From IMG/VR virus record IMGVR_UViG_3300045988_115600: a stretch of 35,928 bases of DNA. The stretch is one strand, 5' to 3'. The DNA is from a virus. The notes under the pieces are model-generated. The model was not told where the DNA came from. It saw nothing but the letters and a program-made list of their open reading frames with translations, and did no database searches. The translations under genes were made by a program, and so were the position numbers. Positions within the stretch are counted from its first letter, which is position 1, and every line of letters begins with the position of its first letter. Shown here piece by piece: positions 1-35,928 of this stretch.

Positions 1-77
1 GTTGAAATTACAGAAGAGGCAACACCGTTGCCGCTTGAATTAAATAAAGCACCAGCACCATTACAGGAAGAGGAAAA
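1..77. repeat. 77-bp terminal direct repeat identical to 35852..35928. This is a contig-end overlap indicating a circular or circularly permuted genome.
   Basis: Read by eye: the first 77 bases (gttgaaattacagaagagg...caggaagaggaaaa) recur exactly as the last 77 bases of the window. Confidence 0.9.
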
Positions 78-141
78 CAAAGCAAAGACGGATACATTTA
101 ATTTTACAGAGGCAGTATTGCTTGCAATGAATGAAGAATAA
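1..141 (+). CDS. 3' part of a small wrap-around ORF that starts at 35837. The acidic hypothetical protein is about 51 aa once the 77-bp overlap is collapsed.
   Basis: Frame 1 is open from base 1 to TAA at 139..141. It is in frame with ATG 35837, which has an AAGGAG RBS, through the terminal repeat. Confidence 0.45.
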   Translation, partial: VEITEEATPLPLELNKAPAPLQEEENKAKTDTFNFTEAVLLAMNEE

Positions 142-154
142 AGGAGAGTGCGCA

Positions 155-421
155 ATGAGCAAAGAACAGGAAGAAATGCAGCAGGCAACAGAGGAACATA
201 TAGAGCAGCCGTTACCAGATGAACCAAAAGAGGAACAGAGTGAGCCAATGGGAATACTTACAAGCCGAGCGCATGAAGATATGACATTAGCAATTTTACA
301 AGTACAGGCAGCCTATGGACTGCCAGCATATTTAACAGATCTGATTGTAACGGCAGTGCTTGCGGATATCCGGGGCTGTGCAAATAAGGATTTGCTTAAT
401 ACATTGAGCAGAAAGGAGTAG
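155..421 (+). CDS. Hypothetical small acidic protein between Tal and the fibre gene.
   Basis: ORF 131..421. The internal ATG at 155 is preceded by AAAGGAG (138..144). It sits in the tail-fibre gene cluster. No recognisable domain. Confidence 0.5.
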   Translation: MSKEQEEMQQATEEHIEQPLPDEPKEEQSEPMGILTSRAHEDMTLAILQVQAAYGLPAYLTDLIVTAVLADIRGCANKDLLNTLSRKE

Positions 422-424
422 CAC

Positions 425-1426
425 ATGGCGTTACAGAATGTACAGAGAATACAGATTGAGCTTGACGGCAGCGCACCTTTTGAGTATGTCGTGGCAAAAG
501 CTGGGGAAAAAGAAAGCCGGATAGTGGAAGTTACACTGTTGGAGAATAAGAAAGAGTTTACCATACCAGCCGGGACAACAGCAAAAATTAAGTATTACAA
601 GCCAGACGGCAAATTTGTATTGAACAATGCCACAATCAGCGGGAATGTTATTACAGTGACATATACAGAGCAGATGCTGGCAGTTTCCGGCACTGGGCGT
701 GGGGAAATTGTTTTATACAACGGAACAGCCGTATTACGAAGCGCAACGTATTACACGAAGATTACACCAACGGTGTACAAGGAAAATGGGCTGATAAGTG
801 ATAATGAGTTTTTGGATATGGCAGAAAGCATTATTGCAATGAATCAGCAGACAGATAAGGCAATAAATGCAACCAAGAGTGCAGAACAGGCGGCAGCAGA
901 TGCCAATACAGCAACAGCAGCAGCCAATAGCGCAGCAAAAGCGGGAAATGCAGCGGCTACAGCCGGAAATAATGCAGCAAAGGCAGCGAATGATGCAGCA
1001 GAGGCGGCAAATAATGCAGCAAACAGTGTAGCACAGACAAAGAAAGATGCAACAGCGGCAGCAGAAGCCGCCAACAGTGCAGCCAAGGCAGCAAACGAAG
1101 CGACCACAGCAGCCAATAGTGCAGCGAAAGCGGGAAATGCAGCAGCCGCAGCCGGGAACAGCGCAGCCAAGGCAGCGAATGATGCAGCAGCAGCGGCAAA
1201 TGAAGCCAAAGCCAATACAGTAACAGCAACACAGAACGCACAGACAGCAACCAGCGAGGCGAACACAAAGGCAGCAGCCGCCAATAATGCAGCCGTAGCG
1301 GCAAATAAAGCGGCGGCAGCCTGTGAGAATATGGCAAAGGGAATTAACAGTATGACGGACAGCACAACGGGCATTACCTACACAATAGGGATTAACGGCG
1401 GCATGGTGTATTTAGAATCAGTATAA
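425..1426 (+). CDS. Tail fibre / baseplate upper protein-like (BppU-type N-domain) with an Ala/Asn-rich shaft.
   Basis: 333-aa ORF with an AAGGAG RBS. The N-terminal ~140 aa resemble BppU-type fibre N-domains (recalled from memory, not searched). The C-terminal ~190 aa are AANSAAKAGNAAA-type low complexity, typical of fibre shafts. It lies directly after Tal. Confidence 0.6.
   Translation: MALQNVQRIQIELDGSAPFEYVVAKAGEKESRIVEVTLLENKKEFTIPAGTTAKIKYYKPDGKFVLNNATISGNVITVTYTEQMLAVSGTGRGEIVLYNGTAVLRSATYYTKITPTVYKENGLISDNEFLDMAESIIAMNQQTDKAINATKSAEQAAADANTATAAANSAAKAGNAAATAGNNAAKAANDAAEAANNAANSVAQTKKDATAAAEAANSAAKAANEATTAANSAAKAGNAAAAAGNSAAKAANDAAAAANEAKANTVTATQNAQTATSEANTKAAAANNAAVAANKAAAACENMAKGINSMTDSTTGITYTIGINGGMVYLESV
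918..1207 (+). repeat. Internal direct duplication inside the fibre shaft: ~100-nt units at about 918..1017 and 1108..1207.
   Basis: gcagccaatag[c/t]gcagc[a/g]aaagcgggaaatgcagc...gcagcgaatgatgcagcag occurs twice. The protein segments AANSAAKAGNAAATAGNNAAKAANDAA and AANSAAKAGNAAAAAGNSAAKAANDAA correspond. Confidence 0.7.
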
Positions 1427-1436
1427 GGAGCAGAGC

Positions 1437-2714
1437 ATGGCAAGAATTTATTTAGCGGATAAAGAAACATTGGACAGTACGCACGCAAATACAAATGCAA
1501 TTCTGGCAGCATTAGAGGAAAGCGGCGGGGAACATAAGAAAGCGGTACGTTATGGTATCAAAATCAGCAAGAGCGACAGCGGAAAGAAAAGCCGGGTAAC
1601 GTACCTATATGACGCTGTAGGCATGACCCCTGCGGCGATGAACTATACAGACGGTGTTTTTAACTATGGTAGCTGGGGCAATGTGGAATTTGTAAAGAAT
1701 AACTACCCTTGCATGGTTAAGTTTGACGGTACAGAGGACTACAAGTTACTGGCAACAGATTACTCATTAAAGGCAGACGGAACAACGGCAAGCGATGTGG
1801 CAAACGTGGATTATGCGGGTAATGCAATGGCAGCATTTAAGGGCGGCTGGCTGTGCCAGTACGAAACGGCTACAGACGAATACATCATTTGGAGTAATGT
1901 AAAATACGATGACGGGTACAACGCATACCACAGAACAGCACCAGACGGAGTTATCAGAGAGGGATTTTACCGCAGAATCTACACACCTGCATTATTAAAT
2001 AATGTAGCAAGGTCATTAAGTGGGCAGCAGCCAATGGCAAGCAAAAATGCAACGCAGGAACGTACATACATTAAAGCAAACGGCGATGTATGGGAGCATA
2101 CAAGCTGGTGGGAATGGAATTATATTATTGCACTGTTAAAGATTATGGCAAAATCAGAGGATTTACAGGAAGCATACGGCAATGGAAACATGAGCGGTTA
2201 TGTGAATGATTCAACGAAGTATTACGGAGTACTTGCCACAGGTAGTATGGACGATAAAGGGCAGTTTTACGGATATAATGCCGGAAATAAACAGATTAAG
2301 GTATTCCATACAGAGGCAATGTGGGGCGATCAGTGGGAGCGTATCTGTCAAATGGTTTGTGATAAAGGCGTTGTGAAAGTGCAGCCATATGGAGATTGTA
2401 ATTTAACTGGTGCAGGATTTGAAAAAGTGCTAGATTTTGCAGATTACGGAGTAAGTGGTAGCGTTGGCGGCTACATGAAAGATACCGTTATGACGAAAGC
2501 GGGACGTTTCCCGGTAACATATACAGGCAGCAGCTCAACATATCTGTGTGATTACTTTTGGTTGAATACAGGCATTGTGGCTGTGCCTCTTGTGGGCGGC
2601 GACTGCAACAGCGGGCTGGGTTGCGGGGCTTGCGTGACCTTGGCCAACACCGCTGGCAATGCGACCTGGGGCATTGCGCCCGGTCTTTCTTGCAAAATGC
2701 CTAATGCTGCGTAA
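1437..2714 (+). CDS. DGR target protein 1, a putative receptor-binding fibre tip whose C-terminal 38 codons are the variable repeat.
   Basis: 425-aa ORF with an AAGGAG RBS, immediately downstream of the fibre gene. Its C-terminus VAVPLVGGDCNSGLGCGACVTLANTAGNATWGIAPG is encoded by VR1, which matches the TR except at adenines. Confidence 0.85.
   Translation: MARIYLADKETLDSTHANTNAILAALEESGGEHKKAVRYGIKISKSDSGKKSRVTYLYDAVGMTPAAMNYTDGVFNYGSWGNVEFVKNNYPCMVKFDGTEDYKLLATDYSLKADGTTASDVANVDYAGNAMAAFKGGWLCQYETATDEYIIWSNVKYDDGYNAYHRTAPDGVIREGFYRRIYTPALLNNVARSLSGQQPMASKNATQERTYIKANGDVWEHTSWWEWNYIIALLKIMAKSEDLQEAYGNGNMSGYVNDSTKYYGVLATGSMDDKGQFYGYNAGNKQIKVFHTEAMWGDQWERICQMVCDKGVVKVQPYGDCNLTGAGFEKVLDFADYGVSGSVGGYMKDTVMTKAGRFPVTYTGSSSTYLCDYFWLNTGIVAVPLVGGDCNSGLGCGACVTLANTAGNATWGIAPGLSCKMPNAA
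2577..2691 (+). repeat. DGR variable repeat VR1.
   Basis: Gap-free 115-nt manual alignment to TR 2810..2924 shows 12 mismatches. All are at TR adenines (A->G x8, A->C x3, A->T x1). The first 24 nt, which contain no A, are identical. Confidence 0.9.
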
Positions 2715-2729
2715 GCAGTAAAGGGGGAA

Positions 2730-2747
2730 CGGGGGATTTCTCCCCCG
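2730..2747 (+). promoter_or_regulatory. GC-rich hairpin 38 nt downstream of VR1: 7-bp stem CGGGGGA/TCCCCCG with loop TTTC. Candidate DGR target-recognition element.
   Basis: The inverted repeat was read directly. A near-identical copy follows VR2 at 14278..14295. Confidence 0.7.
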
Positions 2748-2809
2748 CAGGAAAGTACAACATACGAAAAATTAACGGTAGAGAGAATATAATAGGGGAT
2801 TTCCGGGGC

Positions 2810-2924
2810 GTGGCTGTGCCTCTTGTGGGCGGCAACTGCAACAACGGGCTGAATTGCGGGGCTTACGTGAACTTGAACAACACCGCTGGCAATGCGAACT
2901 GGAACATTGCGCCCGGTCATTCTT
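2810..2924 (+). repeat. DGR template repeat (TR), non-coding.
   Basis: It lies in the 334-nt gap between the target stop and the RT start. It contains 24 adenines, and 10 codons in the VR frame are AAC/AAT. It is the invariant parent of both VR1 and VR2. Confidence 0.9.
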
Positions 2925-3048
2925 ATCAAATTATGGAAGATTAACCAAATGCCCCGGAAATTCCTACACCGCTGGCGGTTGAAATACCGCTGAAAGTGAA
3001 AATACAGCCGCAAAAGGTGCAGTATGGTAGCCGGGGCGAAGCCCTTAG

Positions 3049-4260
3049 TTGCATAGCGTGGCGAACTACTGCAAGGCGATAAGAAAGAGAATAAGAATGA
3101 TTAGTTTTAACGGCGTAAGCGAACAACTGTATATACCAGAAGAACAAATAAAAGATATATACAATGCATCAAAAGGAAAGAGCAAGAAAGAACAGGCGCA
3201 GATAGTAAAAGCGAATGTAGAACACTACAGAAAAGAGCTGGATAAAAGATTAAAGAACAATACATTTGCACCGAAAAGACATAAAACAAAAATCATACAG
3301 GAAAATTCCTGCAAGAAAACACGAAAGATAGTAAAGCCACAATATATGTATGAGCAAATGGCGCACCATTCCGTAATGCGGGTATTTGTGCCGATTGCAA
3401 TGAGAGGCATGTATTACCATGTGTACGGGAGTATACCGGGAAAAGGTGTACACAGAGGAAAAAGAACTGTAGAACGGTGGATAAGAGAGGATAGCAGAAA
3501 CTGCAAGTACATATATAAGCTGGATATACGGCATTTCTTTGAGAGTGTGCCGCACAGAAGATTAAAGAAAGCACTAAAACGGAAAATCAGAGATAGAGAG
3601 TTACTAAAGAAATTATTTATTATCATAGACAGCCATAAACCGGGGTTGCCGTTAGGCTATTACCCGTCACAGTGGTTCGGTAATTTTTATTTGCAGCCAC
3701 TAGATCACTTTATCATGGAGCAGTTACATGTAAAGCATTACATACGGTATATGGACGATATGGTTATATTCGGAAACAATAAAAAGGAACTGCATAAAGC
3801 AAGGCTGCAAATTGAGAAATTCATAACGGAAGAGCTGGGATTACAAATAAAGAAAAACTGGCAGGTATTCCGTTTTGACTATGTAGACAGAAAAGGCAAG
3901 CGCAGAGGCAGACCGTTGGATTTTATGGGGTTCAAATTTTATAGAGACAGAACAACGATACGAAAGAGCATATTACAGGGCATACGTGGCAAGGTCAACC
4001 GGGTAAAGCGAAAAGAAAAGATTACGTGGGTAGATGCAGGTAGTTTACTTTCTAGGCTGGGCTGGATTTGGCATAGTGACACTTACGCATATTACGAAAG
4101 ATACATAAAACCATATGTAAAAGTGAAAGTGCTAAAAACGCTGGTTTCAAAGCACGCAAGAAAGGAGAATGAACGCAATGGAATGGTACGCAGCAGAAAG
4201 CACTGCAGAAGAGAAACCAAAAGAGCTGGATATAACAAGCAGCCCGCACCTTGTATATAA
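3049..4260 (+). CDS. DGR reverse transcriptase.
   Basis: 403-aa ORF. An alternative, more likely start is ATG 3097 (MISFNG...). YMDD lies at 3748..3759 (IRYMDDMVIFG). The DGR-clade motif LGYYPSQ ([LIV]GxxxSQ) lies at 3652..3672. It is adjacent to the TR. Confidence 0.9.
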   Translation: MHSVANYCKAIRKRIRMISFNGVSEQLYIPEEQIKDIYNASKGKSKKEQAQIVKANVEHYRKELDKRLKNNTFAPKRHKTKIIQENSCKKTRKIVKPQYMYEQMAHHSVMRVFVPIAMRGMYYHVYGSIPGKGVHRGKRTVERWIREDSRNCKYIYKLDIRHFFESVPHRRLKKALKRKIRDRELLKKLFIIIDSHKPGLPLGYYPSQWFGNFYLQPLDHFIMEQLHVKHYIRYMDDMVIFGNNKKELHKARLQIEKFITEELGLQIKKNWQVFRFDYVDRKGKRRGRPLDFMGFKFYRDRTTIRKSILQGIRGKVNRVKRKEKITWVDAGSLLSRLGWIWHSDTYAYYERYIKPYVKVKVLKTLVSKHARKENERNGMVRSRKHCRRETKRAGYNKQPAPCI

Positions 4261-4483
4261 GAGGCGCAATATTGAAAAAGTACCCATGAGTAATGAAAAT
4301 GAGGAAAGCATGGCAGGAGAAAAGTGGGTATATGAAGAATGTATGCAGGATAAAGAAGAGTATGAGAGCCAGCAGGCAGAGTTATTAAGCCCAACTACAG
4401 AGGCAATCATGCAGGAAATTTCCGCATTGCAGATGCAGCAGACAGAAACGCAGATCACACTTGAAATGTTAATGGAGCAGTAG
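4178..4483 (+). CDS. Hypothetical acidic protein in the position usually held by an XkdW-like gene upstream of xkdX.
   Basis: ORF 4169..4483. ATG 4178 has better spacing to AAGGAG (4162..4167). It overlaps the RT 3' end by about 83 nt. It is Glu-rich and not Avd-like. Confidence 0.5.
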   Translation: MEWYAAESTAEEKPKELDITSSPHLVYKRRNIEKVPMSNENEESMAGEKWVYEECMQDKEEYESQQAELLSPTTEAIMQEISALQMQQTETQITLEMLMEQ

Positions 4484-4498
4484 AAAGGCGGCACAGAC

Positions 4499-4648
4499 AT
4501 GTACGAAGAACTGAAAAAGAAATACGATAAAGGCTATATCACAAAGGCAACATTAAAAGGCTGGGTACGCATTGAGCGTAAGGTAAAGGGCAGAGGGATT
4601 ACAGAGGAACAGTACGAGCAGATTACAGGCGAAAAATACGAGGCATAG
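4499..4648 (+). CDS. XkdX-family small phage protein (49 aa).
   Basis: It is not in the ORF track because it is under 60 aa. The translation MYEELKKKYDKGYITKATLKGWVRIERKVKGRGITEEQYEQITGEKYEA matches the XkdX pattern (W...ITEEQYxxITG). It sits between the fibre and lysis genes. Confidence 0.65.
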   Translation: MYEELKKKYDKGYITKATLKGWVRIERKVKGRGITEEQYEQITGEKYEA

Positions 4649-4664
4649 GAGAAACACAGAGAAA

Positions 4665-5021
4665 ATGGTAGAACAGGTAATAACTTACATTACGGCAAAC
4701 TGGGTAGCATGGTTATTTGCCGGAGCGTATGCAATTCTTATTGCACTTTATAAAAAAGAGAAACAGCAGCATAAGGAAGAAAGAGAAGAAAACAAGGCAG
4801 TGCGTGAGGGATTGCAGGCACTTTTGCGGCAGCAAATCATAGATATTTGCCTAAAGTATGAGGAACACAAAGAAGCCCCGGCATGGGCAAAGCAGGCTGA
4901 AACATCAGCATATAAAGCCTATGAAAAGCTGGGCGGCAATGATGTAGCACACGCAATGCATGAAAGATTTATGCAACTGCCATTATCAGACGGTAATTTA
5001 GAAACAGAAAGGATACATTAG
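4665..5021 (+). CDS. Membrane-anchored protein, first gene of the lysis cluster.
   Basis: 118 aa with one N-terminal TM helix (WVAWLFAGAYAILIALY) followed by a charged helical domain. Function not established. Confidence 0.5.
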   Translation: MVEQVITYITANWVAWLFAGAYAILIALYKKEKQQHKEEREENKAVREGLQALLRQQIIDICLKYEEHKEAPAWAKQAETSAYKAYEKLGGNDVAHAMHERFMQLPLSDGNLETERIH

Positions 5022-5027
5022 CAGTAA

Positions 5028-5351
5028 ATGACATATCGCAGGAGAAAGCGGCGTAGAAGAGTGACACCACAGGCGGCGGTAAGCTGGCTGTGGGAGTTCA
5101 GTAAAAAAGTGGTGTGGACGGTAACACTCTTATACATTGTGTCGTTTGTGTTCGCAATGGTTTTATGTTGGCGAGAGCTACAGTTCATAGGAAACACAGC
5201 GGCAATAACAACACTGATTACAGAATCAAACGAAACATTCCGGGTAGTTGTTGGTGGATATCTGATTAAAGCAGGAATAGAAAACGCCTGCAAGATTGTT
5301 ACCAGTAAGCAAACGCCGCAGGAAGAAACAGACGATAACGCAGAGGGGTAA
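5028..5351 (+). CDS. Small membrane protein (holin/antiholin candidate).
   Basis: 107 aa with an Arg-rich N-terminus, one or two hydrophobic helices (VVWTVTLLYIVSFVFAMVLCW) and an acidic C-tail. Confidence 0.45.
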   Translation: MTYRRRKRRRRVTPQAAVSWLWEFSKKVVWTVTLLYIVSFVFAMVLCWRELQFIGNTAAITTLITESNETFRVVVGGYLIKAGIENACKIVTSKQTPQEETDDNAEG

Positions 5352-5360
5352 GGTGGTAAT

Positions 5361-5699
5361 ATGGGCTTTATCATGGAAAATATCAGAGTTATAGGAATTG
5401 TGTACCTTATAGGTGCAATCATTACTTTTATTGGTTTATTTGCTTTTTTTATGTGGGCGGCAAAGGCAGATGCCAAGGAACAGGAATTATACCCGGAATA
5501 TCCGATAGAAGATGAAAACGAACCATTCAGCTTGTACATAACGGTTGTATTTATTATTTCCATTATGACGGCAATTATATGGTGGGGCGTACCGCTTTTG
5601 TTGGGTGGGTTGCTTCTTTATGACAAGATAACGCAGGAGTACCCGCAGTTAATGGGTGGCATGAATGACACAGAAGAAAAAGAAAACGGAAAGGAATAG
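5361..5699 (+). CDS. Small membrane protein with 2 TM helices.
   Basis: 112 aa with an AAGGTGG RBS. Helices VIGIVYLIGAIITFIGLFAFFMW and TVVFIISIMTAIIWWGVPLLLGGLLL. Acidic tail. Confidence 0.5.
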   Translation: MGFIMENIRVIGIVYLIGAIITFIGLFAFFMWAAKADAKEQELYPEYPIEDENEPFSLYITVVFIISIMTAIIWWGVPLLLGGLLLYDKITQEYPQLMGGMNDTEEKENGKE

Positions 5700-5704
5700 A
5701 GAAA

Positions 5705-6055
5705 ATGGAAAAAGTACTTTTTTATGTAGCGGCAGCATTGATTGCTGTAATGGTTTTGACACTGTGGGTAAATATTATTGTGGCAATCACAAAAAAGGTT
5801 GTTGCGTGGGACAAGTTCCCGGTGCAGGTGTGGGTAATGATTGTAGCCATTGCCTCTACATTGATTACCGTAGCAGCATTTGCACAGTATTTTAATATTG
5901 CAATGTTGTGGTATTACTGGGTAGCAGCTATTGCGCTGGGCTTTTTGGTATGCTATGCGGCAATGTTTGGATATGACAACCTTTATAAGCAAATCATGGA
6001 AACTGTACAAAAGATAAGGGAACTACTGGCAAGAATCACAAAAGACGCTGAATAG
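5705..6055 (+). CDS. Putative holin (3 TM helices).
   Basis: 116 aa with three hydrophobic helices and a charged C-terminus. It lies immediately upstream of the endolysin. RBS GGAAAGGA. Confidence 0.6.
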   Translation: MEKVLFYVAAALIAVMVLTLWVNIIVAITKKVVAWDKFPVQVWVMIVAIASTLITVAAFAQYFNIAMLWYYWVAAIALGFLVCYAAMFGYDNLYKQIMETVQKIRELLARITKDAE

Positions 6056-6076
6056 AAAGAATGAGGATAAAACTAT

Positions 6077-7171
6077 ATGAGCGTATTGATTGGACACGCA
6101 AGCATCAGCGAGAACGGAACTATTAACGGAAAAAAGGGAGATCAGACGGGAAAAGAGGTATGTGTAAGAAACTTTTATAGTAAAACATGGGATTTTATGG
6201 CAATCCACCCGGACGCAAACGTAAGAGAGAAGCACGCAAAAGCGGTAGAGGCAGGCTGTGCAAATAACAATATCGGATACGGACAGGGCGATAGAAACAC
6301 GCTGAACACAGAGGCAAAGAAAGTAAATTATGATTTGTCAAAAGTAGGGCTGTGCAATACGGACTGTAGCGAGTTCCAGAACGTGTGCGCCGTTGCATCT
6401 GGCGCAGCAGGCGTAACGCATGGCAGTAATGGGTGGACTACAGCAACCATGCGTAACGCATTAAATGCTGCGGGCTACAAAATCATTACAGACAGTGCAT
6501 TTCTGAAAAATGAAAATTACTGTGTAAGAGGTGCAATCTATGTAAAAGAAAGCTCACACACCGTATGCGGGCTGACAAATGGAACATACGCAGCACAGAC
6601 GCTTGCAAAAGCCGGGATTGGCGGATACGCCGGAAATAACAACTATTCTGGCAAAGGAATTGGTACAGCGGTTGCAAAATGCGATATGAACATCAGAAGC
6701 GTAGCAGAAGTAAAGAGCAATACTGTATACAGTTCGATTAAAGCGGGCACAAAAGTAGAAGTGCTGGAGGTGTTGGCAAATGGCTGGTATAAGATTGTAT
6801 GGGCGGGCGCATCTTGCGGCTATGCTTATACATCGAATACAAACAATAAGTATTATACATATACCGCCAACAGCAAAAACAACAGTACCAGCACCAGCGA
6901 TAGCAGTGGATTAAAGCAGACGCAGAAACCAGAATCAGCGTTGTGTTTTGATAAGACGCTGGCGGGTGCATATGTTGTTACAGCGGACAAATTGCACATG
7001 AGAGCAGGAGCAGGAAAAACAAAAGCGGACTATGGAACTATCGCAGAGGGTGGCAAAGTACATTGTTACGGATATTACAACAAAGAAAAGGGGACAGGTG
7101 CAAAATGGCTGTATGTTGCCTGCGGAAACGTAACGGGATACTGCCATAGCGATTATCTGAAAAGAGCATAA
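6077..7171 (+). CDS. Endolysin: N-terminal Cys/His peptidoglycan hydrolase domain plus two SH3b-like cell-wall binding repeats.
   Basis: 364 aa. The DCSEF...SSHTVCG arrangement resembles Amidase_5/NlpC-P60-type phage lysins. The C-terminal repeats contain GWYKIVWAGASCGYAY and AKWLYVACGNVTGYCHSDYL. It follows the holin-like genes. Confidence 0.75.
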   Translation: MSVLIGHASISENGTINGKKGDQTGKEVCVRNFYSKTWDFMAIHPDANVREKHAKAVEAGCANNNIGYGQGDRNTLNTEAKKVNYDLSKVGLCNTDCSEFQNVCAVASGAAGVTHGSNGWTTATMRNALNAAGYKIITDSAFLKNENYCVRGAIYVKESSHTVCGLTNGTYAAQTLAKAGIGGYAGNNNYSGKGIGTAVAKCDMNIRSVAEVKSNTVYSSIKAGTKVEVLEVLANGWYKIVWAGASCGYAYTSNTNNKYYTYTANSKNNSTSTSDSSGLKQTQKPESALCFDKTLAGAYVVTADKLHMRAGAGKTKADYGTIAEGGKVHCYGYYNKEKGTGAKWLYVACGNVTGYCHSDYLKRA

Positions 7172-7172
7172 T

Positions 7173-7355
7173 ATGGACGCACAAACAGCGGGCAGAGTTT
7201 TGGCGGCGTTGGTAATATGTAGCGGGCACAATAAAGGCTGTGACGAGTGCCCGGCATACGATGTAGAAGCCACAGGAGAAGCACAGCAGAAACGATGCAA
7301 TGAATTATTGAGCGATAGCAATATTGAAAAAGCATTAGAAACAATGAGAGGATAA
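7173..7355 (+). CDS. Hypothetical small Cys-containing protein.
   Basis: 60-aa ORF starting 1 nt after the endolysin stop and followed by a terminator. No recognisable domain. Confidence 0.4.
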   Translation: MDAQTAGRVLAALVICSGHNKGCDECPAYDVEATGEAQQKRCNELLSDSNIEKALETMRG

Positions 7356-7361
7356 AAGAAA

Positions 7362-7391
7362 GGGTAGCGGTGTGAGCCGTTACCCTTTTTG
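7362..7391. terminator. Bidirectional rho-independent terminator between convergent genes.
   Basis: Stem GGGTAGCGG / CCGTTACCC (one G-U pair) with loop TGTGAG, followed by TTTTT. It lies between the + gene ending at 7355 and the - gene ending at 7393. Confidence 0.7.
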
Positions 7392-7392
7392 C

Positions 7393-8376
7393 CTACTGAT
7401 TTAAAACCAGATCATAAAATACGTTTTCAGATAAAATCTGTATGTCCTTGCCTTTTAAAATAAGTGATTCAGCCTTTTTCTGTTTATTGCTTTTACCGTC
7501 TTTTATGAGACTGCAAAAATCATTATTGCCGAGAATTAAATAATTTGTTTTGGCTGTGACGTTATCCCCGCACTGCCCGCCGAGGTTTACCACAAGTTGC
7601 ATGGCATCTTTACGCTGCATCTTTTCTAATGTGCCAGTGAATACACAGAGCTTGCCGTAAAGCGGGTGGCTGATATCAAAATTATCTGTAGTTGCCGTAA
7701 TATCTTTTGCGTGTAGTTGGTGGCTGGAATAAGAAGCCTTAAAGCCGTCAAAGTCCCCATATTGTGAAACCGCATCAGAAAGCAAGGATTGATAGCAGGC
7801 GTTGCAGGCTTCACAATCAGCATAGGAGCGGTGCGCCGGGGAAGAAACTTTATAATGGGCGGCAACCGTTTCTAGTTTGTGGTTTTTCAGTTCCGGCAGC
7901 AGTTTCCTTGCAAAACGCATTACATCAACAAAGGAATTGGTAAAATCAATGCTGTGCGTATCCTGCAATACGTCATAAATAAAATTGATATCGAAATTTA
8001 CGTTATAGCCTACAAGGATATCAGAACCGACAAAATCATAGAAAGATTTAATTGCATCGGAAATGGCGGGAGCATCAGCAACCAGATCGTTTGTTATCCC
8101 GGTCAGTTCGGTTATAAAGCTGTCAATAGGTTCGGTGGGTTTAACAAGAGTAGTAAAAGAATCAACTAAAGAACCGTTTGAGTAGCGCAGTGCGGATAGT
8201 TCGATGATTTCACAATAACGGGAGTCCAGCCCGGTTGTTTCAATGTCAATTACCGTATAAGTATCTGGTGCGGCAATGAGGCTGCGCCCTTTATTTGGGC
8301 GGCTGGGTTTTTCTGATTTATCAGACGTAGTAACAAAAGGTTTCCCGTTTTCATCAATACCGATAGAAATGAACAT
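7393..8376 (-). CDS. DEDDh 3'-5' exonuclease (DnaQ/epsilon-like) fused to a C-terminal BRCT domain.
   Basis: ORF 7393..8457. The likely start is ATG at 8376 (MFISIGIDENG) with an AGAGGG RBS. Exo motifs DIETTG, GYNVNFDINF and HRSYADCEA are present. The BRCT-like C-terminus reads GKLCVFTGTL...AKTNYLILGN. It is the only reverse-strand gene. Confidence 0.8.
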   Translation of the reverse strand: MFISIGIDENGKPFVTTSDKSEKPSRPNKGRSLIAAPDTYTVIDIETTGLDSRYCEIIELSALRYSNGSLVDSFTTLVKPTEPIDSFITELTGITNDLVADAPAISDAIKSFYDFVGSDILVGYNVNFDINFIYDVLQDTHSIDFTNSFVDVMRFARKLLPELKNHKLETVAAHYKVSSPAHRSYADCEACNACYQSLLSDAVSQYGDFDGFKASYSSHQLHAKDITATTDNFDISHPLYGKLCVFTGTLEKMQRKDAMQLVVNLGGQCGDNVTAKTNYLILGNNDFCSLIKDGKSNKQKKAESLILKGKDIQILSENVFYDLVLNQ

Positions 8377-8501
8377 AGTAAATACCCTCTTTCGTTTGAA
8401 AATTATAGTCATGCTGACCTTTAACACAATTATGCTTTTGAAATGTGGTAAAGTCAAGAAAAATTCTGATTATTAACACAAATACGATAGGGGCGTACTG
8501 A

Positions 8502-8753
8502 ATGAAAATATACGCATACAAAGGGAAAGATAATTTATGTGGAGAACGCATAAGATTGGCAAGAGCGAAAAACAGAATTACACAAAGTGATTTAGCAGCA
8601 CGTATGCAGGTAGCTGGGGTTACAATAGAAAGAGATTCAATAAGCCGGATAGAACGGGGCACAAGAATTGTAACAGATTACGAATTGAAAATATTTTCTA
8701 AAGCGTTGGGCGTGAGCATGGAATGGCTGACAGACGAAAGCGGGACACTGTAA
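8502..8753 (+). CDS. XRE-family helix-turn-helix transcriptional regulator (Cro/CI-type).
   Basis: 83 aa. GERIRLARAKNRITQSDLAARMQVAGVTIERDSISRIERG is a canonical XRE HTH. It is divergent from the exonuclease gene. Confidence 0.8.
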   Translation: MKIYAYKGKDNLCGERIRLARAKNRITQSDLAARMQVAGVTIERDSISRIERGTRIVTDYELKIFSKALGVSMEWLTDESGTL

Positions 8754-8788
8754 CAATAGTTATGGTGTTTTTCTTTATAAAAAAATAC

Positions 8789-8830
8789 ACCCAATGAGTA
8801 AAAAATAATTGACAAATGTACTCAATGGGT
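8789..8830. promoter_or_regulatory. Operator-like inverted repeat ACCCAATGAGTA-N18-TACTCAATGGGT overlapping the -35 box and spacer of the promoter.
   Basis: 12-nt arms at 8789..8800 and 8819..8830, complementary at 11 of 12 positions. It brackets TTGACA. Confidence 0.5.
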
Positions 8831-8837
8831 ATATAAT
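8809..8837 (+). promoter_or_regulatory. Consensus sigma-A/sigma-70 promoter: TTGACA, 17-nt spacer, TATAAT.
   Basis: TTGACA at 8809..8814 and TATAAT at 8832..8837 with exactly 17-nt spacing, about 40 nt upstream of an RBS plus ATG at 8877. Confidence 0.7.
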
Positions 8838-8876
8838 ATAATTGTAGCAAGGGAACAGCGGGAAAGGAGTTAAAAA

Positions 8877-9008
8877 ATGGAGAACGAAGAAATGAGCAAA
8901 GCCGATTTAATAGCAATGTTGGTATCAATTAGAGAAGTAGCAAGAACAAACGGGGAAACACATACAGTAGAACATATAGAAAAAATTCTTGAAGAAGTAA
9001 GAAAATAA
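8877..9008 (+). CDS. Hypothetical 43-aa protein.
   Basis: It is not in the ORF track. GGAAAGGAG RBS at 8861..8869, ATG at 8877 and stop at 9006..9008. Translation MENEEMSKADLIAMLVSIREVARTNGETHTVEHIEKILEEVRK. Confidence 0.4.
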   Translation: MENEEMSKADLIAMLVSIREVARTNGETHTVEHIEKILEEVRK

Positions 9009-9127
9009 AATAGAATAAAATAAAGGGAACACACGAGGGGCGGATACCTAAACAATCCTGCTAACCGCCCCAAGTGCTTAATTAGATTATAGCAGGAAAA
9101 AAATAAAAGGCAAGAGGTGTAAATGAA

Positions 9128-9409
9128 ATGAAAGCAGTAAAGGGATACACAAAAAATGATTATATTGCAATCTGCCAAGAGGAAGATGGTGGAGAAAGTT
9201 TTAATTTCAAATCAATGAACGAAGCTGTTAAATATTTTGTGAAATTTATGCCGGGTTCTTTAAAAAAAGAAGCTATTGCAAGAATTAAGAATGATAAAAA
9301 TTGTGATTGGGTTTTCTTTGAAGATGGAAGCGTTATTTTTAGATACTACGGAAAAGGATATAATGAAACAATTATAAATGAAATGAGAGAAAATGGATAT
9401 GGAGCGTAA
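9128..9409 (+). CDS. Hypothetical protein.
   Basis: 93-aa ORF with an AGAGGTG RBS. No recognisable domain. Confidence 0.5.
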   Translation: MKAVKGYTKNDYIAICQEEDGGESFNFKSMNEAVKYFVKFMPGSLKKEAIARIKNDKNCDWVFFEDGSVIFRYYGKGYNETIINEMRENGYGA

Positions 9410-9587
9410 GGAAACAGACAAAATGACGGTTGAAGAGGCACGCAAACAGCAGGGCATGAGCAGGCGCGAGGTATCGGAATGGTTAGAGATACCATATAGA
9501 ACGCTGACAAACTGGGAGAATGGGGTACGGAGTTGCCCGCATTATATTGAAAAGCTGATAGTAGAAAAAATATTGCAGGGCAAATAA
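9393..9587 (+). CDS. Small HTH DNA-binding protein (XRE-like).
   Basis: 64 aa, with an alternative start at 9423 (MTVEEARK). ARKQQGMSRREVSEWLEIPYRTLTNWENGVRSCP is a typical short phage HTH regulator pattern. Confidence 0.6.
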   Translation: MDMERKETDKMTVEEARKQQGMSRREVSEWLEIPYRTLTNWENGVRSCPHYIEKLIVEKILQGK

Positions 9588-9604
9588 CGAAAAGCACACA
9601 GAGA

Positions 9605-9636
9605 GCCGCAGGACAACAACGCCTGCGGCTTGTTTT
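9605..9636 (+). terminator. Rho-independent terminator.
   Basis: Stem GCCGCAGG (9605..9612) / CCTGCGGC (9622..9629) with a 9-nt loop, followed by TTGTTTT. Confidence 0.7.
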
Positions 9637-9654
9637 ACGAAAGAGGGCGGGAAC

Positions 9655-10707
9655 ATGGCAAATCAAAAGGGTAGCAGACAATTAAAGCACAATGATAGAA
9701 TCAGATTAGAAGCCTTGTACAATGCAGGGCATAAGGTTGTGGAGATCGCAGAAATTTTGCATGTACACCGCAGTACAATTTATAACGAGCTGAAGCGTGG
9801 ACAATATGAACATTTGAACAGTGATTATACAAGAGAAATGAGATACAGCGCAGACCTTGCACAACGGAAGTATGAGGAAAATTTAAAAGTGCGAGGAACG
9901 CAATTAAAGATAGGAAATGATATTAAGCTGGCAAATTACATAGAGGACAAAATAATAAATGAAGATTACAGCCCGGACGCAATCATAGGGGAACTGACAG
10001 CAGAGGGACGCTGGGGAGAATTTCAAACCAGAATATGCACCACTACGGTATACAACTATATTGATAAGGGAATCTTTTTAAAAGTAACAAATAAGGACTT
10101 GCCAGTAAAGAAGAACAAAAAACGCAAGTATAATAAGGTAAAGAAACAGAAAAGGGCAGAAGCAGGGGAAAGCATAGAGAATAGACCAGAAGCAATAAAC
10201 AACCGGGAAGAGTTCGGACATTGGGAAATGGACAGCGTAATAGGACAGCGTGGAAAATCGAAAAATACATTGCTGACACTCACAGAGCGAAAGACACGAG
10301 CAGAAATTATTTTTAAATTGCCGGATCACAGCGCAGAGGCGGTAGTGGCAGCAGTTGACAGATTAGAGAATCGCTGGGGAGAAATGTTTAAGACGGTATT
10401 TAAGAGCATCACAGTAGACAACGGCACAGAGTTTGCATATTGTGCAGAGTTGGAGCGTTCAGCGATAGGCGAGGGGAAAAGAACCAAAATGTATTATTGC
10501 CACCCGTACAGTAGTTGGGAGCGTGGTACAAACGAGGTAACAAATAAAATGGTACGCCGCCGAGTTCCAAAGGGCACAAATTTTGACGGACGGACAGAGG
10601 AAGAAATACAGGCAGTAGAAGAGTGGATAAATAAGTATCCTAGGCGCATACATGGGTATAAATCAGCAGGGCAGTTATTTGATGAAGAACTTAAAAGAAT
10701 CAGCTAA
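9655..10707 (+). CDS. IS30-family DDE transposase/integrase.
   Basis: 350 aa. N-terminal HTH (RIRLEALYNAGHKVVEIAEILHVHRSTIYNELKRG). DDE triad context HWEMDSV ... TVDNGTEF ... SWERGTNE. The element ends were not found by eye. Confidence 0.85.
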   Translation: MANQKGSRQLKHNDRIRLEALYNAGHKVVEIAEILHVHRSTIYNELKRGQYEHLNSDYTREMRYSADLAQRKYEENLKVRGTQLKIGNDIKLANYIEDKIINEDYSPDAIIGELTAEGRWGEFQTRICTTTVYNYIDKGIFLKVTNKDLPVKKNKKRKYNKVKKQKRAEAGESIENRPEAINNREEFGHWEMDSVIGQRGKSKNTLLTLTERKTRAEIIFKLPDHSAEAVVAAVDRLENRWGEMFKTVFKSITVDNGTEFAYCAELERSAIGEGKRTKMYYCHPYSSWERGTNEVTNKMVRRRVPKGTNFDGRTEEEIQAVEEWINKYPRRIHGYKSAGQLFDEELKRIS

Positions 10708-10950
10708 TCTAATAAAAGGGCATAACGGCTGGCTGGAAACGGTACAGCCTTATTGGATTGCTTATAAAAAGAACCGTAGAAACAGAATATACAATAAAAG
10801 CACATATGTTTTGTACAAAATGCCGATATTGAAATTTTGTCGAAAAAAAGGTTGAAATTTTTAAAGATAAGTTTTAGAATGAAATTCGACAAAGGGAATT
10901 AAAAAAATTCTCTTGCCGAATTTCTTTTTATATATGGCAAGAAAAGAAAA

Positions 10951-11643: not shown

Positions 11644-11717
11644 GTGCCGTTAGTTCAGTTGGTTAGAGCAACCGCCTCATAAGCGGTAAGTCATGGGTTC
11701 AAGTCCCATACGGCGCA
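11644..11717 (+). tRNA. tRNA with anticodon CAU (elongator Met, or Ile2 if lysidine-modified).
   Basis: Manually folded cloverleaf:
- Acceptor stem GTGCCGT/ACGGCGC (one G-U pair).
- D arm GTTC-AGTTGGTTA-GAGC.
- Anticodon stem ACCGC/GCGGT with loop CTCATAA (CAT at 11678..11680).
- 5-nt variable loop.
- T arm ATGGG-TTCAAGT-CCCAT.
- Discriminator A. No encoded CCA. Confidence 0.85.
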
Positions 11718-12564: not shown

Positions 12565-12575
12565 GAGAAAAAGCA

Positions 12576-13078: not shown

Positions 13079-13096
13079 GAAACGAGGTAAAAAAGT

Positions 13097-14269
13097 ATGA
13101 GTGAAGCAATGGCAGCAGTAGAAAGAGCTGTACGGTTTGGAATTAAGATTAACAAAAACGAAGAGGACAGCAACAAGCGGGTAACGTACCTGTATGATGC
13201 CGTAGGTATGATACCTGCGGTAATGGATTTTGTAGAGGGTGCATTTAATTATGGTAGCTGGGGCAATGTGGAATTTGTAAAGAACAACTACCCTTGCATG
13301 GTTAAATTTGACGGCACAGAGGATTACAGATTAAACCCGGACAATTACGAACTGAAAGAGGACGGGACAAAGAGCAATATTACAGATATTTATTATGCGG
13401 GTAATGCAATGGCTGCATTTAAGGGCGGCTGGCTGTGCCAGTACGAAACAGCTACAGACGAATATATCATTTGGAGCAATGTAAAATTTGATGATTCATA
13501 CAACGCATACCACAGAACAGGAAAAGACGGCACATTAAATGCCGGATTCTACAGACACATTTATACGCCGTCACTGGTTGGCAATGCAGCCCGTAGCCTT
13601 AGTGGTTGTCAGACTATCGGAAATATGACAGCGGAGCAGGAAAACGAGGCTTGCAAGGCAAACGGCGATAAGTGGGCTATGAGTTCATGGTGGGAATGGA
13701 ATTACATTATTTGCCTGTTAAAGATTATGGCAAAAACAGACGATTTGCAGACAGCCTACGGAACAGGAAACAGCAGAACCGGGCAGCCAGCGAATACAGG
13801 TACATTAAACGGCAAAGGGCAGTTTTATGGTGCATCTGATTTTAGAATACAAGTTAAGGTATTCCATACAGAGGCATTATGGGGCGATAAATGGGAGCGT
13901 TTAACAAAGCTGATCTGTGCAGACGGAATTGTAAAAGTATTGCCGTATGGAGAGCCGAACTTTACGGGACAGGGATATACAGACGCATACCGCTATATGT
14001 GGAATGATTGGCGTTATGGCTATGTAGATAAAACCGTAATGACACCATACGGACGCTTGCCAATCTCATTTAATGGGACAAGCCATAAATATGCAGCAGA
14101 CGGCGGGGCAGTAGATACAGAAATTGTGGCTGTGCCTCTTGTGGGCGGCAGCTGCAACAACGGGCTGAATTGCGGGGCTTACGTGACCTTGTACAACTCC
14201 GCTGGCTATGCGTACTGGGGCGTTGCGCCCGGTCTTTCTTGTGAAATGCCTGCGGCTGCGGAGCAGTAA
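13097..14269 (+). CDS. DGR target protein 2, a paralog of target 1 that lacks its first ~35 aa. Its C-terminus is the second variable repeat.
   Basis: 390 aa with a GAGGT RBS. It shares long blocks with the 1437..2714 product (VTYLYDAVGM, NYGSWGNVEFVKNNYPCMVKFDGTEDY, GNAMAAFKGGWLCQYETATDEYIIWSNVK). The C-terminus VAVPLVGGSCNNGLNCGAYVTLYNSAGYAYWGVAPG is encoded by VR2. Confidence 0.85.
   Translation: MSEAMAAVERAVRFGIKINKNEEDSNKRVTYLYDAVGMIPAVMDFVEGAFNYGSWGNVEFVKNNYPCMVKFDGTEDYRLNPDNYELKEDGTKSNITDIYYAGNAMAAFKGGWLCQYETATDEYIIWSNVKFDDSYNAYHRTGKDGTLNAGFYRHIYTPSLVGNAARSLSGCQTIGNMTAEQENEACKANGDKWAMSSWWEWNYIICLLKIMAKTDDLQTAYGTGNSRTGQPANTGTLNGKGQFYGASDFRIQVKVFHTEALWGDKWERLTKLICADGIVKVLPYGEPNFTGQGYTDAYRYMWNDWRYGYVDKTVMTPYGRLPISFNGTSHKYAADGGAVDTEIVAVPLVGGSCNNGLNCGAYVTLYNSAGYAYWGVAPGLSCEMPAAAEQ
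14126..14240 (+). repeat. DGR variable repeat VR2, 11.3 kb downstream of the TR.
   Basis: Gap-free 115-nt manual alignment to TR 2810..2924 shows 10 mismatches, all at TR adenines (A->T x5, A->G x4, A->C x1). The pattern differs from VR1. Confidence 0.9.
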
Positions 14270-14277
14270 AGGGGGAA

Positions 14278-14295
14278 CGGGGGATTTTTCCCCCG
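14278..14295 (+). promoter_or_regulatory. GC-rich hairpin 37 nt downstream of VR2: stem CGGGGGA/TCCCCCG with loop TTTT.
   Basis: Same stem as 2730..2747 with a one-base difference in the loop. It is embedded in a shared flank, cagtaaagggggaacgggggattt. Confidence 0.7.
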
Positions 14296-14320
14296 CACCC
14301 GGAAAGGAGAACATACAAAA

Positions 14321-14989
14321 ATGAACAATGAAAATTTTGCCGGAATTATGGGAACGGTAAAGCAGGCAGAGGTAACAAGCGGGGTATGCGGATACGACAC
14401 AGAAAACCGCTATGCAGTGCTGCGGGTATGTGTACCGAGAAAAAGCGGGGCAGAGGATACGGTAATTGTAGCTGCAAAAATAAAGGAAAATGAAAACATA
14501 GACGCAGAAGCAATAGCAAGAAATATGGTGGTTGGCAGAGATATTATGGCAACGGGCATTTTGCAGAAAGCCATGAACGCAGAAAGCGGGCATACGGCTG
14601 TTTTTATCCTTGCAGATCACGTTGTAACAGTAGGGTTCCCGGAATATCAGAACGGCGTGCAATTAACAGCGGAAATTGTGAATAACCCGGAAGTAAGAGA
14701 AACACCAAGGGGAAAACATATAGCAGATGTAATGCTGAAAGTGGAAAACTGCATACAGGGTGGAAACGTACATATCCCATGTATTTTCTGGCAGGAGAAC
14801 GCCAGCGAGATTGCAAAGTACAAAAGAGGCACGATTGTAAAAATCACTGGCAGATTACAGAGCCGGGAGTATGTGAAAAAGTATTACGGCGATAATAACA
14901 CAGAATCAGAAGAGAAAAGAACCACTTTCGAGGTATCAGTAGAAAAGATGCAGGTATGGTGGCAGCCGGAAACAGTAGAAAGGAATTAG
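14321..14989 (+). CDS. ssb: Single-stranded DNA-binding protein-like, with two OB-fold halves.
   Basis: 222 aa. The second half (VQLTAEIVNNPEVRETPRGKHIADVMLKV...IPCIFWQENASEIAKYKRGTIVKITGRLQSREY...TTFEVSVEKMQV) follows the canonical SSB OB-fold pattern. The first half is a degenerate copy. Confidence 0.6.
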   Translation: MNNENFAGIMGTVKQAEVTSGVCGYDTENRYAVLRVCVPRKSGAEDTVIVAAKIKENENIDAEAIARNMVVGRDIMATGILQKAMNAESGHTAVFILADHVVTVGFPEYQNGVQLTAEIVNNPEVRETPRGKHIADVMLKVENCIQGGNVHIPCIFWQENASEIAKYKRGTIVKITGRLQSREYVKKYYGDNNTESEEKRTTFEVSVEKMQVWWQPETVERN

Positions 14990-14994
14990 ACACA

Positions 14995-16568: not shown

Positions 16569-16582
16569 AAGGGGTTGATAGT

Positions 16583-17235: not shown

Positions 17236-17254
17236 GCACGAAAGAGGTAAAAGT

Positions 17255-18043: not shown

Positions 18044-18049
18044 AAAGAT

Positions 18050-26761: not shown

Positions 26762-26762
26762 G

Positions 26763-31871: not shown

Positions 31872-32628
31872 TGAATATTTTGAAAGTGCAAATAGCTTTA
31901 CCTATAACGGCATAAATTCGTTGGATATGGGGTTATTTATTACAGGGCAGAGTGCCGCCGATTCAGCAGCAGAGCCGGAGATTGAAACCGTAGAAGTGCC
32001 AGCAAAGGGCATATTGATACAGGACAATAGAATAGACACGCTGGACAATCAGAGATTTAAAGATTACGAGCAGAAATATACATGCTGTGTAGATGCGACA
32101 CAGGGCAGGAGCTTAGAAGAACTGGCACACAGCATTTATATGTGGCTGTATGCGCCGGGAATAGAGTATAGCAGGCTGTACGACACTTACAATACAGAAC
32201 GCTATAGGCTGGCGTATATAAACAGTAATGCCAGCGTGTCAGAACTGGCAAAGCGGTTACTGGGAGAGATAGAAATAACATTCATGTGCAAAGCATATGA
32301 AAGGCGGCTGAATGGGGATAAGACAATAACCCTAACGAAAGCAGCAACCATATACAACACAGAGGGATTTACGGCAACGCCGTATATAAAAATAACGGGA
32401 AATGGTGGTATTACGCTGTATATCAATAACCGGGCACATACCTTTAAAGATGTGAACGAATATATTGAGATTGATGGCGAAATAATGAACGCATACAAAG
32501 GCGATTTGCTACAAAACAGTAAAATGGTTACTACTCTTTTCCCAAAGCTGGCAGCAGGAGCAAATAACATAAGCTGGGCTGGCAATGTTACAAAAGTGGA
32601 AATTATACCGAGGTGGTGCAGACTTTGA
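31864..32628 (+). CDS. Distal tail protein (Dit).
   Basis: 254 aa. It overlaps the tape measure stop by 8 nt. Its position between the tape measure and Tal genes, and its N-terminus FTYNGINSLDMGLFI, are typical of siphovirus tail-family proteins. Confidence 0.7.
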   Translation: MLSEYFESANSFTYNGINSLDMGLFITGQSAADSAAEPEIETVEVPAKGILIQDNRIDTLDNQRFKDYEQKYTCCVDATQGRSLEELAHSIYMWLYAPGIEYSRLYDTYNTERYRLAYINSNASVSELAKRLLGEIEITFMCKAYERRLNGDKTITLTKAATIYNTEGFTATPYIKITGNGGITLYINNRAHTFKDVNEYIEIDGEIMNAYKGDLLQNSKMVTTLFPKLAAGANNISWAGNVTKVEIIPRWCRL

Positions 32629-35825: not shown

Positions 35826-35836
35826 AGGAGCAGGAC

Positions 35837-35928
35837 ATGGAAAAAGAACAGGTTGAAATTACAGAAGAGGCAACACCGTTGCCGCTTGAATTAAATAAAG
35901 CACCAGCACCATTACAGGAAGAGGAAAA
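35837..35928 (+). CDS. 5' part of the small wrap-around ORF, which continues at 78..141 after the overlap is collapsed.
   Basis: ATG 35837 is preceded by AAAGGAG (35824..35830). It is open to the window end and in frame with 1..141. Confidence 0.45.
   Translation, partial: MEKEQVEITEEATPLPLELNKAPAPLQEEE
35852..35928. repeat. Second copy of the 77-bp terminal direct repeat.
   Basis: Identical to 1..77 by direct reading. Confidence 0.9.

Follow-up and report, generated by a model that had tools for sequence, protein, structure and literature searches.

The viral sequence recorded in IMG/VR as IMGVR_UViG_3300045988_115600 (35,928 nt, analysed at its full length and hereafter called the window) carries near its start the genes and repeats of a putative diversity-generating retroelement (DGR), which is the subject of this analysis. 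Target 1 (1437..2714) is a 425-aa open reading frame (ORF) for a putative tail-fibre-tip protein, with a variable repeat (VR1, 2577..2691) at its 3' end. A non-coding template repeat (TR, 2810..2924) containing 24 adenines lies between this gene and that of a DGR-type reverse transcriptase (RT, 3097..4260), the last 83 nt of which are overlapped by a small ORF that we call X (4178..4483). Target 2 (13097..14269; 390 aa), a paralogue of target 1 with 59% identity, carries a second variable repeat (VR2, 14126..14240) at its 3' end. All of these features are on the plus strand.

VR1 and TR align without gaps over 115 nt (2577..2691 against 2810..2924). A first-pass annotation had proposed this alignment by hand, and a script reproduced it. 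TR begins with 24 nt that are free of A and match VR1 exactly, and the ten AAC/AAT codons that had been reported for TR in the VR frame were counted as eight AAC and two AAT. All 12 mismatches lie on TR adenines (12 of 24), a confinement with a hypergeometric P of 4.4e-10 given the base composition. The earlier reading that 12 adenines had been mutated was, however, one too many. TR A2919, which corresponds to T2686 in VR1, is T in 18 of the 18 related VRs that reach this position, and for that reason it is a fixed difference between the initiation of mutagenic homing element (IMH) and its TR counterpart (IMH*) and not a mutagenised site, leaving 11 mutagenic changes. The sites that vary in VR1 span 2601..2673. 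The IMH-like 3' end that follows them on the plus strand (2674..2691, TTGCGCCCGGTCTTTCTT; GC core 2676..2685, GCGCCCGG) is common to VR1 and VR2 and is invariant in all VR copies. By these comparisons, the 3' boundary of the transferred information is between 2906 and 2919.

VR1 lies within the last ~46 codons of its ORF, the repeat itself covering codons 381-418, and it ends 23 nt before the stop codon. VR2, found by a repeat search of the whole window, ends 29 nt before the stop codon of target 2. Its mismatches to TR also fall on TR adenines in ten of ten cases (P = 2.6e-8), and the computed alignments of VR1 and VR2 contain no mismatch at a non-adenine TR position, as had been predicted. 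One TR thus serves two VRs, the second of them 11.3 kb downstream. The location of the element given by the first-pass annotation, 1437-4260, was correct for target 1, TR and RT and missed the second target, which lies outside it. A 153-aa ORF on the minus strand (2552-3013) spans VR1, spacer and TR, and gene callers annotate equivalents of it in some relatives (for example L106, 2371-2760); it is probably spurious.

The adenine-free 24-mer from the head of the repeat was used as a query against a collection of viral contigs, and 21 stretches were retrieved. Nine of nine TR copies in the related contigs were identical to the window TR over 115/115 nt. By comparison, among 21 distinct VRs, 237 of the 477 adenine sites were changed relative to TR, but only 5 of the 1813 sites at other bases. 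Identity of the relatives to the window was 94-98% in the target-gene flank, spacer and RT, 86-91% in VR and 100% in TR, and each near-identical genome had its own distinct VR1 and VR2. Protein clusters at 90% identity contained 1906 (target 1) and 1672 (target 2) distinct sequences. Among sampled members, the target 1 residues with at least four amino-acid types were 389, 391, 392, 395, 399, 401, 403, 404, 408, 410, 412 and 413. Residues 389-413 of target 1 were thus hypervariable in its cluster, the target 2 cluster varied at the same codons, and every residue with at least four types came from an A-containing TR codon, with residue 134 of target 2 as the sole exception. The expectation that variation would be confined to positions that are A in an invariant TR therefore held across related contigs and cluster members, that is, between assemblies. 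Since TR is conserved in nine of nine copies while the VRs differ nearly only at adenines, the DGR is almost certainly active or recently active.

Some of the retrieved contigs showed peculiarities at the repeats. In L010 (190-340) a VR is flanked by target 1 sequence on its upstream side and by target 2 sequence on its downstream side, which points either to recombination between the targets or to a chimeric assembly joined at the repeat that they share. L011, L012 and L015 end inside VR, as expected at a hypervariable site.

The RT ORF is open from TTG 3049, which gives the 403 aa originally reported. ATG 3097 is the more probable start because homologues align from residue 1 of the resulting 387-aa form (pI 10.3). 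The catalytic motif YMDD (3748..3759) and the DGR-type LGxxxSQ motif, LGYYPSQ (3652..3672), were both confirmed, the latter aligning to IGSLTSQ of the BPP-1 RT. The ORF matched RVT_1 in Pfam at 5e-14. When it was compared to all PDB sequences, the best match was the BPP-1 bRT (8ub7; E 5.9e-24, 88 bits), followed by group-II-like and retron-type RTs at 43 bits or less, so that a DGR RT is ahead by 45 bits. By this comparison the RT is not closer to the RTs of group II introns or retrons, which agrees with the original assignment. A scan of NCBIfam returned no DGR-specific match; the top score was that of the group II RT/maturase TIGR04416 (85 bits against a cut-off of 300), and the remaining scores were also far under their cut-offs (Drt3a 74/200, Retron St85 51/235, Drt2 54/390, Drt5 49/550, AbiA 29/250). 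Relative to the BPP-1 RT, the protein has ~45 extra basic residues at its C-terminus. We take these data to indicate a DGR-type RT that is intact, with its catalytic motifs.

A search with the RT identified 79 related loci: one copy in [Ruminococcus] faecis JCM 15917 and another 78 with RT identities of 25-58%, which come from Lachnospiraceae, Oscillospiraceae, Gastranaerophilales, Bacteroidaceae and other groups. With a crude seed scan, TR/VR pairs biased to A were detected immediately 5' of the RT in 28 loci, and the VR-to-TR gaps in those loci are too short for an avd gene.

Folding of positions 2780..3100 as RNA predicted that 2795..2811 pairs with 2949..2965 in the spacer, in the minimum-energy fold as well as in the centroid fold. 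The result is a 17-bp duplex that encloses TR. It includes three G.U pairs, which argue for a structure at the RNA level on the plus strand. On the same strand, a 4-bp stem capped by a CUGG tetraloop (2968..2979) and then UGAAAU (to 2985) come after the duplex, both read from the sequence. This arrangement resembles the cPRT Stop of BPP-1, which consists of a duplex between avd and the spacer (avd:Sp), a short stem-loop and A-minor adenosines, and which terminates and licenses cis-primed reverse transcription; Handa et al. (bioRxiv 10.1101/2023.10.23.563531) could predict it in 207 of the 278 DGRs with Avd. The upstream duplex strand ends exactly at the start of TR/VR homology, in line with the BPP-1 structure.

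The duplex was assessed in a registered, ungapped alignment (A4) of 16 divergent Avd-less cassettes. With duplex segments picked by a best-helix finder and their register fixed by conserved anchors, 93.8% of the cells were paired, as compared to 38-44% when the partner was slid by 1-3 columns. Compensatory double changes occurred at 11 of 16 duplex pairs, and none of 500 shuffles reached the observed covariation. Cognate strands paired at 14-16 of 16 positions, and non-cognate combinations at a mean of 11.1. The 16 cassettes share (A)GGG-N10-GCG directly 5' of TR and, ~20-35 nt after TR, AAUGC-N10-CCU, a tetraloop hairpin and AAAA. RNAduplex, run on 46-nt windows, had given messy long interactions with poor z-scores and was replaced by the contiguous-helix finder and the registered alignment. 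In two Oscillospiraceae loci (L055 1389-1460 and L058 9680-9750) a ~45-nt insertion, itself a GC-rich hairpin, splits the downstream duplex strand before the conserved CCU and hairpin and is a natural variant of the RNA scaffold.

A different structure follows the variable repeats. On the plus strand, ~38 nt past each VR and beyond the stop codon, folding identified a GC hairpin of the form CGGGGGA-N4-TCCCCCG without a T-tail: CGGGGGA-TTTC-TCCCCCG after VR1 (2730..2747) and CGGGGGA-TTTT-TCCCCCG after VR2 (14278..14295). The hairpin is kept after VR2 and in all relatives, and there is none after TR. In the wider clade a GGGGG/CCCCC hairpin was found after 20 of 29 VRs, as compared to 1.9% of random 90-nt windows. 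It matches the target-recognition inverted repeat that Guo et al. reportedly described for BPP-1 in 2011, and by this analogy we presume it to be a target-recognition hairpin or cruciform. The BPP-1 inverted repeat is also described in the introduction of Wu et al. 2018 (PMC5758913).

Both targets matched the PHROG family phrog_5302, 'tail protein' (target 1 at 1e-63); neither had a match in Pfam or NCBIfam, and a profile search of PDB sequences with the target returned nothing relevant. When the AlphaFold model of target 1 (predicted local distance difference test score, pLDDT, 63; predicted template modelling score, pTM, 0.70) was compared to BFVD, many gut-phage 'tail collar fiber' models were matched, including those of crAss-like phages, down to E 3e-33. 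Across 99% of its length, target 1 also shares 29% identity with the 'BPP-1-like Mtd' of Faecalibacterium phage FP_Epona, a homologue that Cornuault et al. 2018 (PMC5883640) placed in the Mtd/FGE superfamily.

The genomic position of target 1 is informative as well. The first and last 77 nt of the window (1-77 and 35852-35928) are identical by a repeat search of the whole window. For this reason the contig is a circularly permuted, complete genome of 35,851 bp, and the tail genes at the end of the window therefore directly precede the DGR module at its start. The order across the circle is tape measure protein (TMP, 28971..31871), Dit (31864..32628), a Tal-like tail protein (32613..35825), a small ORF, a fibre protein with a BppU_N match (425..1426), target 1, TR, RT, X, an XkdX-like ORF, membrane proteins and endolysin (6077..7171). 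This bears out the first-pass description of a target gene that follows Tal and a BppU-like fibre gene. Given the gene position, the phrog_5302 match, the tail collar fiber models and the Mtd-like homology to FP_Epona, the identification of target 1 as a receptor-binding tip is well supported but indirect. The variable repeats may well be displayed on a C-type-lectin fold.

Taken together, we consider it very likely that the locus is a functional DGR of the target-TR-RT type, without Avd, in a temperate siphovirus of Lachnospiraceae, and that it diversifies two paralogous tail proteins, of which target 1 most likely has its receptor specificity changed. The transcript, priming and homing steps of the mechanism that we propose are modelled on BPP-1, and the outcome of adenine mutagenesis is seen in the repeats. 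An RNA from ~2795 to at least 2985 would be made, in which TR is enclosed by the 17-bp duplex and followed by the tetraloop hairpin and the A-run. RT would prime in cis from the spacer just 3' of TR, copy from ~2906-2918 to 2810 and stop at the duplex, misincorporating opposite 23 template adenines; because these are mostly in AAC/AAT codons, no stop codons would arise. The cDNA would then replace the homologous VR at the 3' ends of targets 1 and 2, with homing guided by the shared IMH-like end GCGCCCGGTCTTTCTT, which is common to both VRs, and by the GC hairpin downstream of each. Massive variation would result at ~12 surface residues of the two paralogous tail proteins. In the distal fibre protein, target 1, this variation would most likely change receptor specificity and so switch tropism.

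Several observations weigh against this interpretation. No match to Avd or another four-helix bundle, HRDC or a MutS-like protein was found in Pfam, NCBIfam or PHROG for the small ORFs near the RT and near both targets, so that no accessory protein of a known class was found for reverse transcription. A sigma-70 scan upstream of TR returned no convincing promoter, and the total count was below the shuffled expectation. The assignment of the VR fold is weakened by a pLDDT below 35 over residues 381-425 of the target 1 model and by the top Foldseek match to PDB, which is the DGR variable protein TaqVP at a weak E of 0.1. The evidence of recent activity is at the population level, the diversity being between assemblies. 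Finally, it is uncertain whether target 2 is a virion receptor-binding protein. It lacks the first ~25 residues of target 1 and lies in the early region, between tRNA-Met and the genes for the single-stranded DNA-binding protein (SSB), rolling-circle initiator, ParA and ParB, which is an unusual place for a tail gene.

The absence of an avd match does not by itself set this DGR apart. No ORF is present in the 118 nt between VR1 and TR (2692..2809) or in the 172 nt between TR and RT, and the element, originally called a complete DGR, is complete only in the sense of an Avd-less architecture. Wu et al. 2018 (PMC5758913) assigned 29% of the DGRs that they surveyed to Architecture A, a TR-RT arrangement without an accessory gene. 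FP_Epona has no Avd either, and another small protein was suggested in its place (Cornuault et al. 2018, PMC5883640).

The candidate for such a protein in the window is X, an acidic protein of 101 aa (pI 4.2) that belongs to phrog_20201. Just two window genes recur at the divergent RT loci, the target (in 53 loci) and X. By an iterated hidden Markov model search, 59 of 78 divergent loci had an X homologue as the next gene after the RT, in the same orientation and in most cases overlapping the RT end (X loci are labelled L023-L083, L101, L102 and L103-L110). X has this position as well in nine of nine places where three additional family members occur, and in the phages Idris, Arawn and FP_Epona. 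The family has at least 757 members, equivalent to phrog_20201, and is of unknown function; 34 members gave no Pfam match, and there was no match among PDB sequences. The alignment does not contain conserved stretches enough for a degenerate-pattern scan. The model of X (pLDDT 82) is a three-stranded sheet with a long helix for which Foldseek found no PDB fold match, and this rules out X as an Avd-like helical bundle.

An XkdX-like ORF of 47-49 aa always follows X. One possibility is that X takes the place of Avd; another, from the same gene order, is that it may belong to the fibre/lysis module. Target, RT and X occur together in nearly every case, so that linkage of X to the RT cannot be told from linkage to the fibre and XkdX genes. 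In one locus with a different target (L080) the tail context is unchanged. It could be speculated, and we suggest it only tentatively, that X is the missing accessory factor of an Avd-less clade of gut-phage DGRs, acting with the cPRT-Stop-like RNA scaffold, and that target 2 is a non-virion protein. If this were true, there would be a second, Avd-independent way to assemble a DGR ribonucleoprotein, and the remote early-region paralogue would be a diversified non-virion protein.

One alternative accepts a genuine, active DGR but holds that host receptors are not what its diversified proteins bind. They could be adhesins for mucus or other surfaces, or target 2 might not be a virion protein at all; it could be expressed early or in the lysogen as a superinfection-exclusion or decoy protein. 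The shortened N-terminus of target 2 and its distance from the tail module, with tRNA-Met on one side and the SSB and replication-initiator genes on the other, are consistent with this, as are the Hoc-like capsid decoration proteins (Cornuault 2018, PMC5883640) and the 'tentaclins', of unclear role (PMC10743442), among the DGR targets of gut phages. However, target 1 is in the classical position of a distal fibre gene, behind Dit, Tal and BppU and immediately ahead of the lysis genes, both targets match a tail-protein PHROG and tail-fibre structure models, and the FP_Epona homologue is in the Mtd/FGE superfamily. We therefore regard this alternative as unlikely.

Another possibility is that the element is a fossil, in which the TR/VR pattern reflects past activity of a cassette that no longer functions. 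The failure to find Avd or another known accessory gene speaks for this, and the diversity data come from comparisons between assemblies. On the other hand, the RT reading frame is unbroken and keeps its catalytic motifs, TR is 100% conserved as compared to 94-98% in its flanks, VR1 and VR2 differ in every near-identical genome, and the RNA duplex and the target hairpins are maintained across the clade with compensatory changes. A fossil is thus very improbable.

The weakest alternative, that the RT belongs to a group II intron, a retron or an Abi/DRT system and that the repeats are duplicated gene ends under point mutation or gene conversion, has in its favour that group II RT/maturase and then Drt3a gave the best NCBIfam scores without a DGR-specific match, but it is ruled out for practical purposes by how far those scores fall short of their cut-offs, by the PDB comparison, by Rfam, which at gathering thresholds found no group II intron or retron RNA in the window and returned only tRNA-Met, and by differences that lie on adenines of one invariant copy (22/22 here and 237/242 in relatives), a distribution that excludes random divergence and gene conversion.

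The DGR that we favour can be compared to several known systems. Like the BPP-1 DGR (mtd-avd-TR-brt), it transfers adenine-specific changes from TR to VR into the 3' end of a tail-fibre-tip gene, its RT has the BPP-1 enzyme (8ub7) as its closest solved relative with the motifs [ILV]GxxxSQ and YMDD in both, the VR has a GC-rich IMH-like end with a hairpin downstream, and an upstream:spacer duplex around TR is followed by a short stem-loop and adenosines, as in the BPP-1 cPRT Stop. In contrast to BPP-1, avd was not found in the genome, the distance from the TR end to the duplex is ~24 nt and not ~58 nt, the hairpin lies ~38 nt after VR and past the stop codon, a second target is present at a distance of 11.3 kb, and the host is a Gram-positive gut member of the Lachnospiraceae.

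Similarity was also observed to FP_Epona and to the Butyrivibrio phages Arawn, Idris and Closwp03, which have the same order of fibre, target, TR, RT, X overlapping the RT end, XkdX-like protein, holin and endolysin. In the FP_Epona/Arawn/Idris group the targets (29-37% identity) and X are homologous to those of the window, and FP_Epona is likewise without Avd (PMC5883640). These phages differ in their backbones, FP_Epona being a myovirus with a P2-like baseplate, and sequence identity to the window is just 29-45%. A single adjacent target is annotated in them, whereas the window phage adds a remote paralogous one.

The gene order also corresponds to Architecture A, which has target-TR-RT on a single strand and lacks avd, HRDC and MSL; the same survey reports targets that are not adjacent, at distances of up to 20 kb (Wu et al. 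2018, PMC5758913). Unlike that class, for which the survey lists no accessory gene, the window has a conserved small acidic gene after the RT. The 'CH1' protein described there is also acidic, 160-169 aa long and from Bacteroides lineage 3a (PMC5758913), and X might be equivalent to it or to one of the 'PAG' genes of that survey. The gut-phage DGRs nd4 and nd12, those of the 'tentaclins', also use one TR for two VRs, and their TR is identical among related genomes whose VRs differ (PMC10743442). Their targets are unrelated proteins inside the cassette, one with the VR at its gene's 5' end (PMC10743442), unlike the window targets, which are 59% identical paralogues with both VRs at the 3' end and the second in the early region. 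The element is therefore a DGR of a known kind, the Avd-less Architecture A, with cultured relatives in FP_Epona, Arawn and Idris, and as such it is ordinary for gut phages.

Of wider interest are the RNA scaffold that this Avd-less clade conserves, gene X and the distant location of the second target. The clade retains the TR-enclosing duplex, the stem-loop and the A-run, like the structurally shown BPP-1 scaffold, and this argues for a cis-priming mechanism that is conserved even without Avd. X, directly after the RT, is a candidate replacement for Avd. A temperate Lachnospiraceae phage that rewrites ~12 residues at the tips of two tail proteins would help to explain strain-level phage-host dynamics as well as assembly breaks at such loci.

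The host was identified by a scan of species-representative genomes, in which a 99% identical RT copy was found in [Ruminococcus] faecis JCM 15917. This locus is collinear at 99% with window 29028..35928 followed by 1..10869, and the prophage was thus recovered in part. The match to the chromosome (L022) stops at ~10863-10869, just 3' of a gene for an IS30-like integrase with HTH_38 and rve domains (9655..10707). Several viral contigs (including L014 and L018) break at the same point, and L021 is continuous across it. The point is probably the attachment region of a phage with a DDE-type integrase. Because similarity to the host chromosome ends at this integrase-adjacent point, which is common to several contigs, we regard the phage as temperate: by these comparisons it is a 35.85-kb siphovirus of Lachnospiraceae, present as a prophage in [Ruminococcus] faecis. 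Since JCM 15917 is cultured, it could provide a culturable system, if the prophage is complete and inducible. Members of the target 1 cluster (P0242 and P0243, at least 90% identical) are annotated in the genomes of Coprococcus comes and Blautia sp. AF17-9LB; together with [Ruminococcus] faecis, these indicate that the prophage lineage appears in several Lachnospiraceae genera. A megablast search with 25 kb against a phage collection identified no close annotated relative, the best being just a 3% match.

Other features of the genome were also noted. The tRNA-Met gene (CAT anticodon; 11644..11717, by Rfam) is ~0.8 kb from the putative attachment region, and the SSB gene (14321..14989) follows target 2. 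Genes for ParA-like and ParB-like partition proteins and for a rolling-circle replication initiator lie at 17255-19342 and 15813-16568. In a phage that is also found integrated, they hint at an alternative, plasmid-like lifestyle. The BppU-like gene contains, over 854-1303, degenerate 21-nt (7-codon) repeats rich in Ala and Asn, which encode AANxAAK-type heptads. This part of the fibre is likely a coiled-coil shaft, and the antisense ORFs over the same interval are artefacts of the repeat.

Two related sequences deviate from the window in ways that concern assembly or sequencing. L007 (IMGVR_UViG_3300029678_000042; 13,136 nt) joins window 12563-20900 straight to 59-4648, so that the replication and fibre/DGR modules are present and the whole head and tail module (20900-35851) is absent; either misassembly or its descent from a deletion would explain this contig. 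In the draft genome of JCM 15917 (L022, 9448-9891), G-runs in TR, in the hairpin downstream of VR and upstream of TR contain extra G residues as compared to all other copies, which suggests errors of homopolymer sequencing and not true indels.

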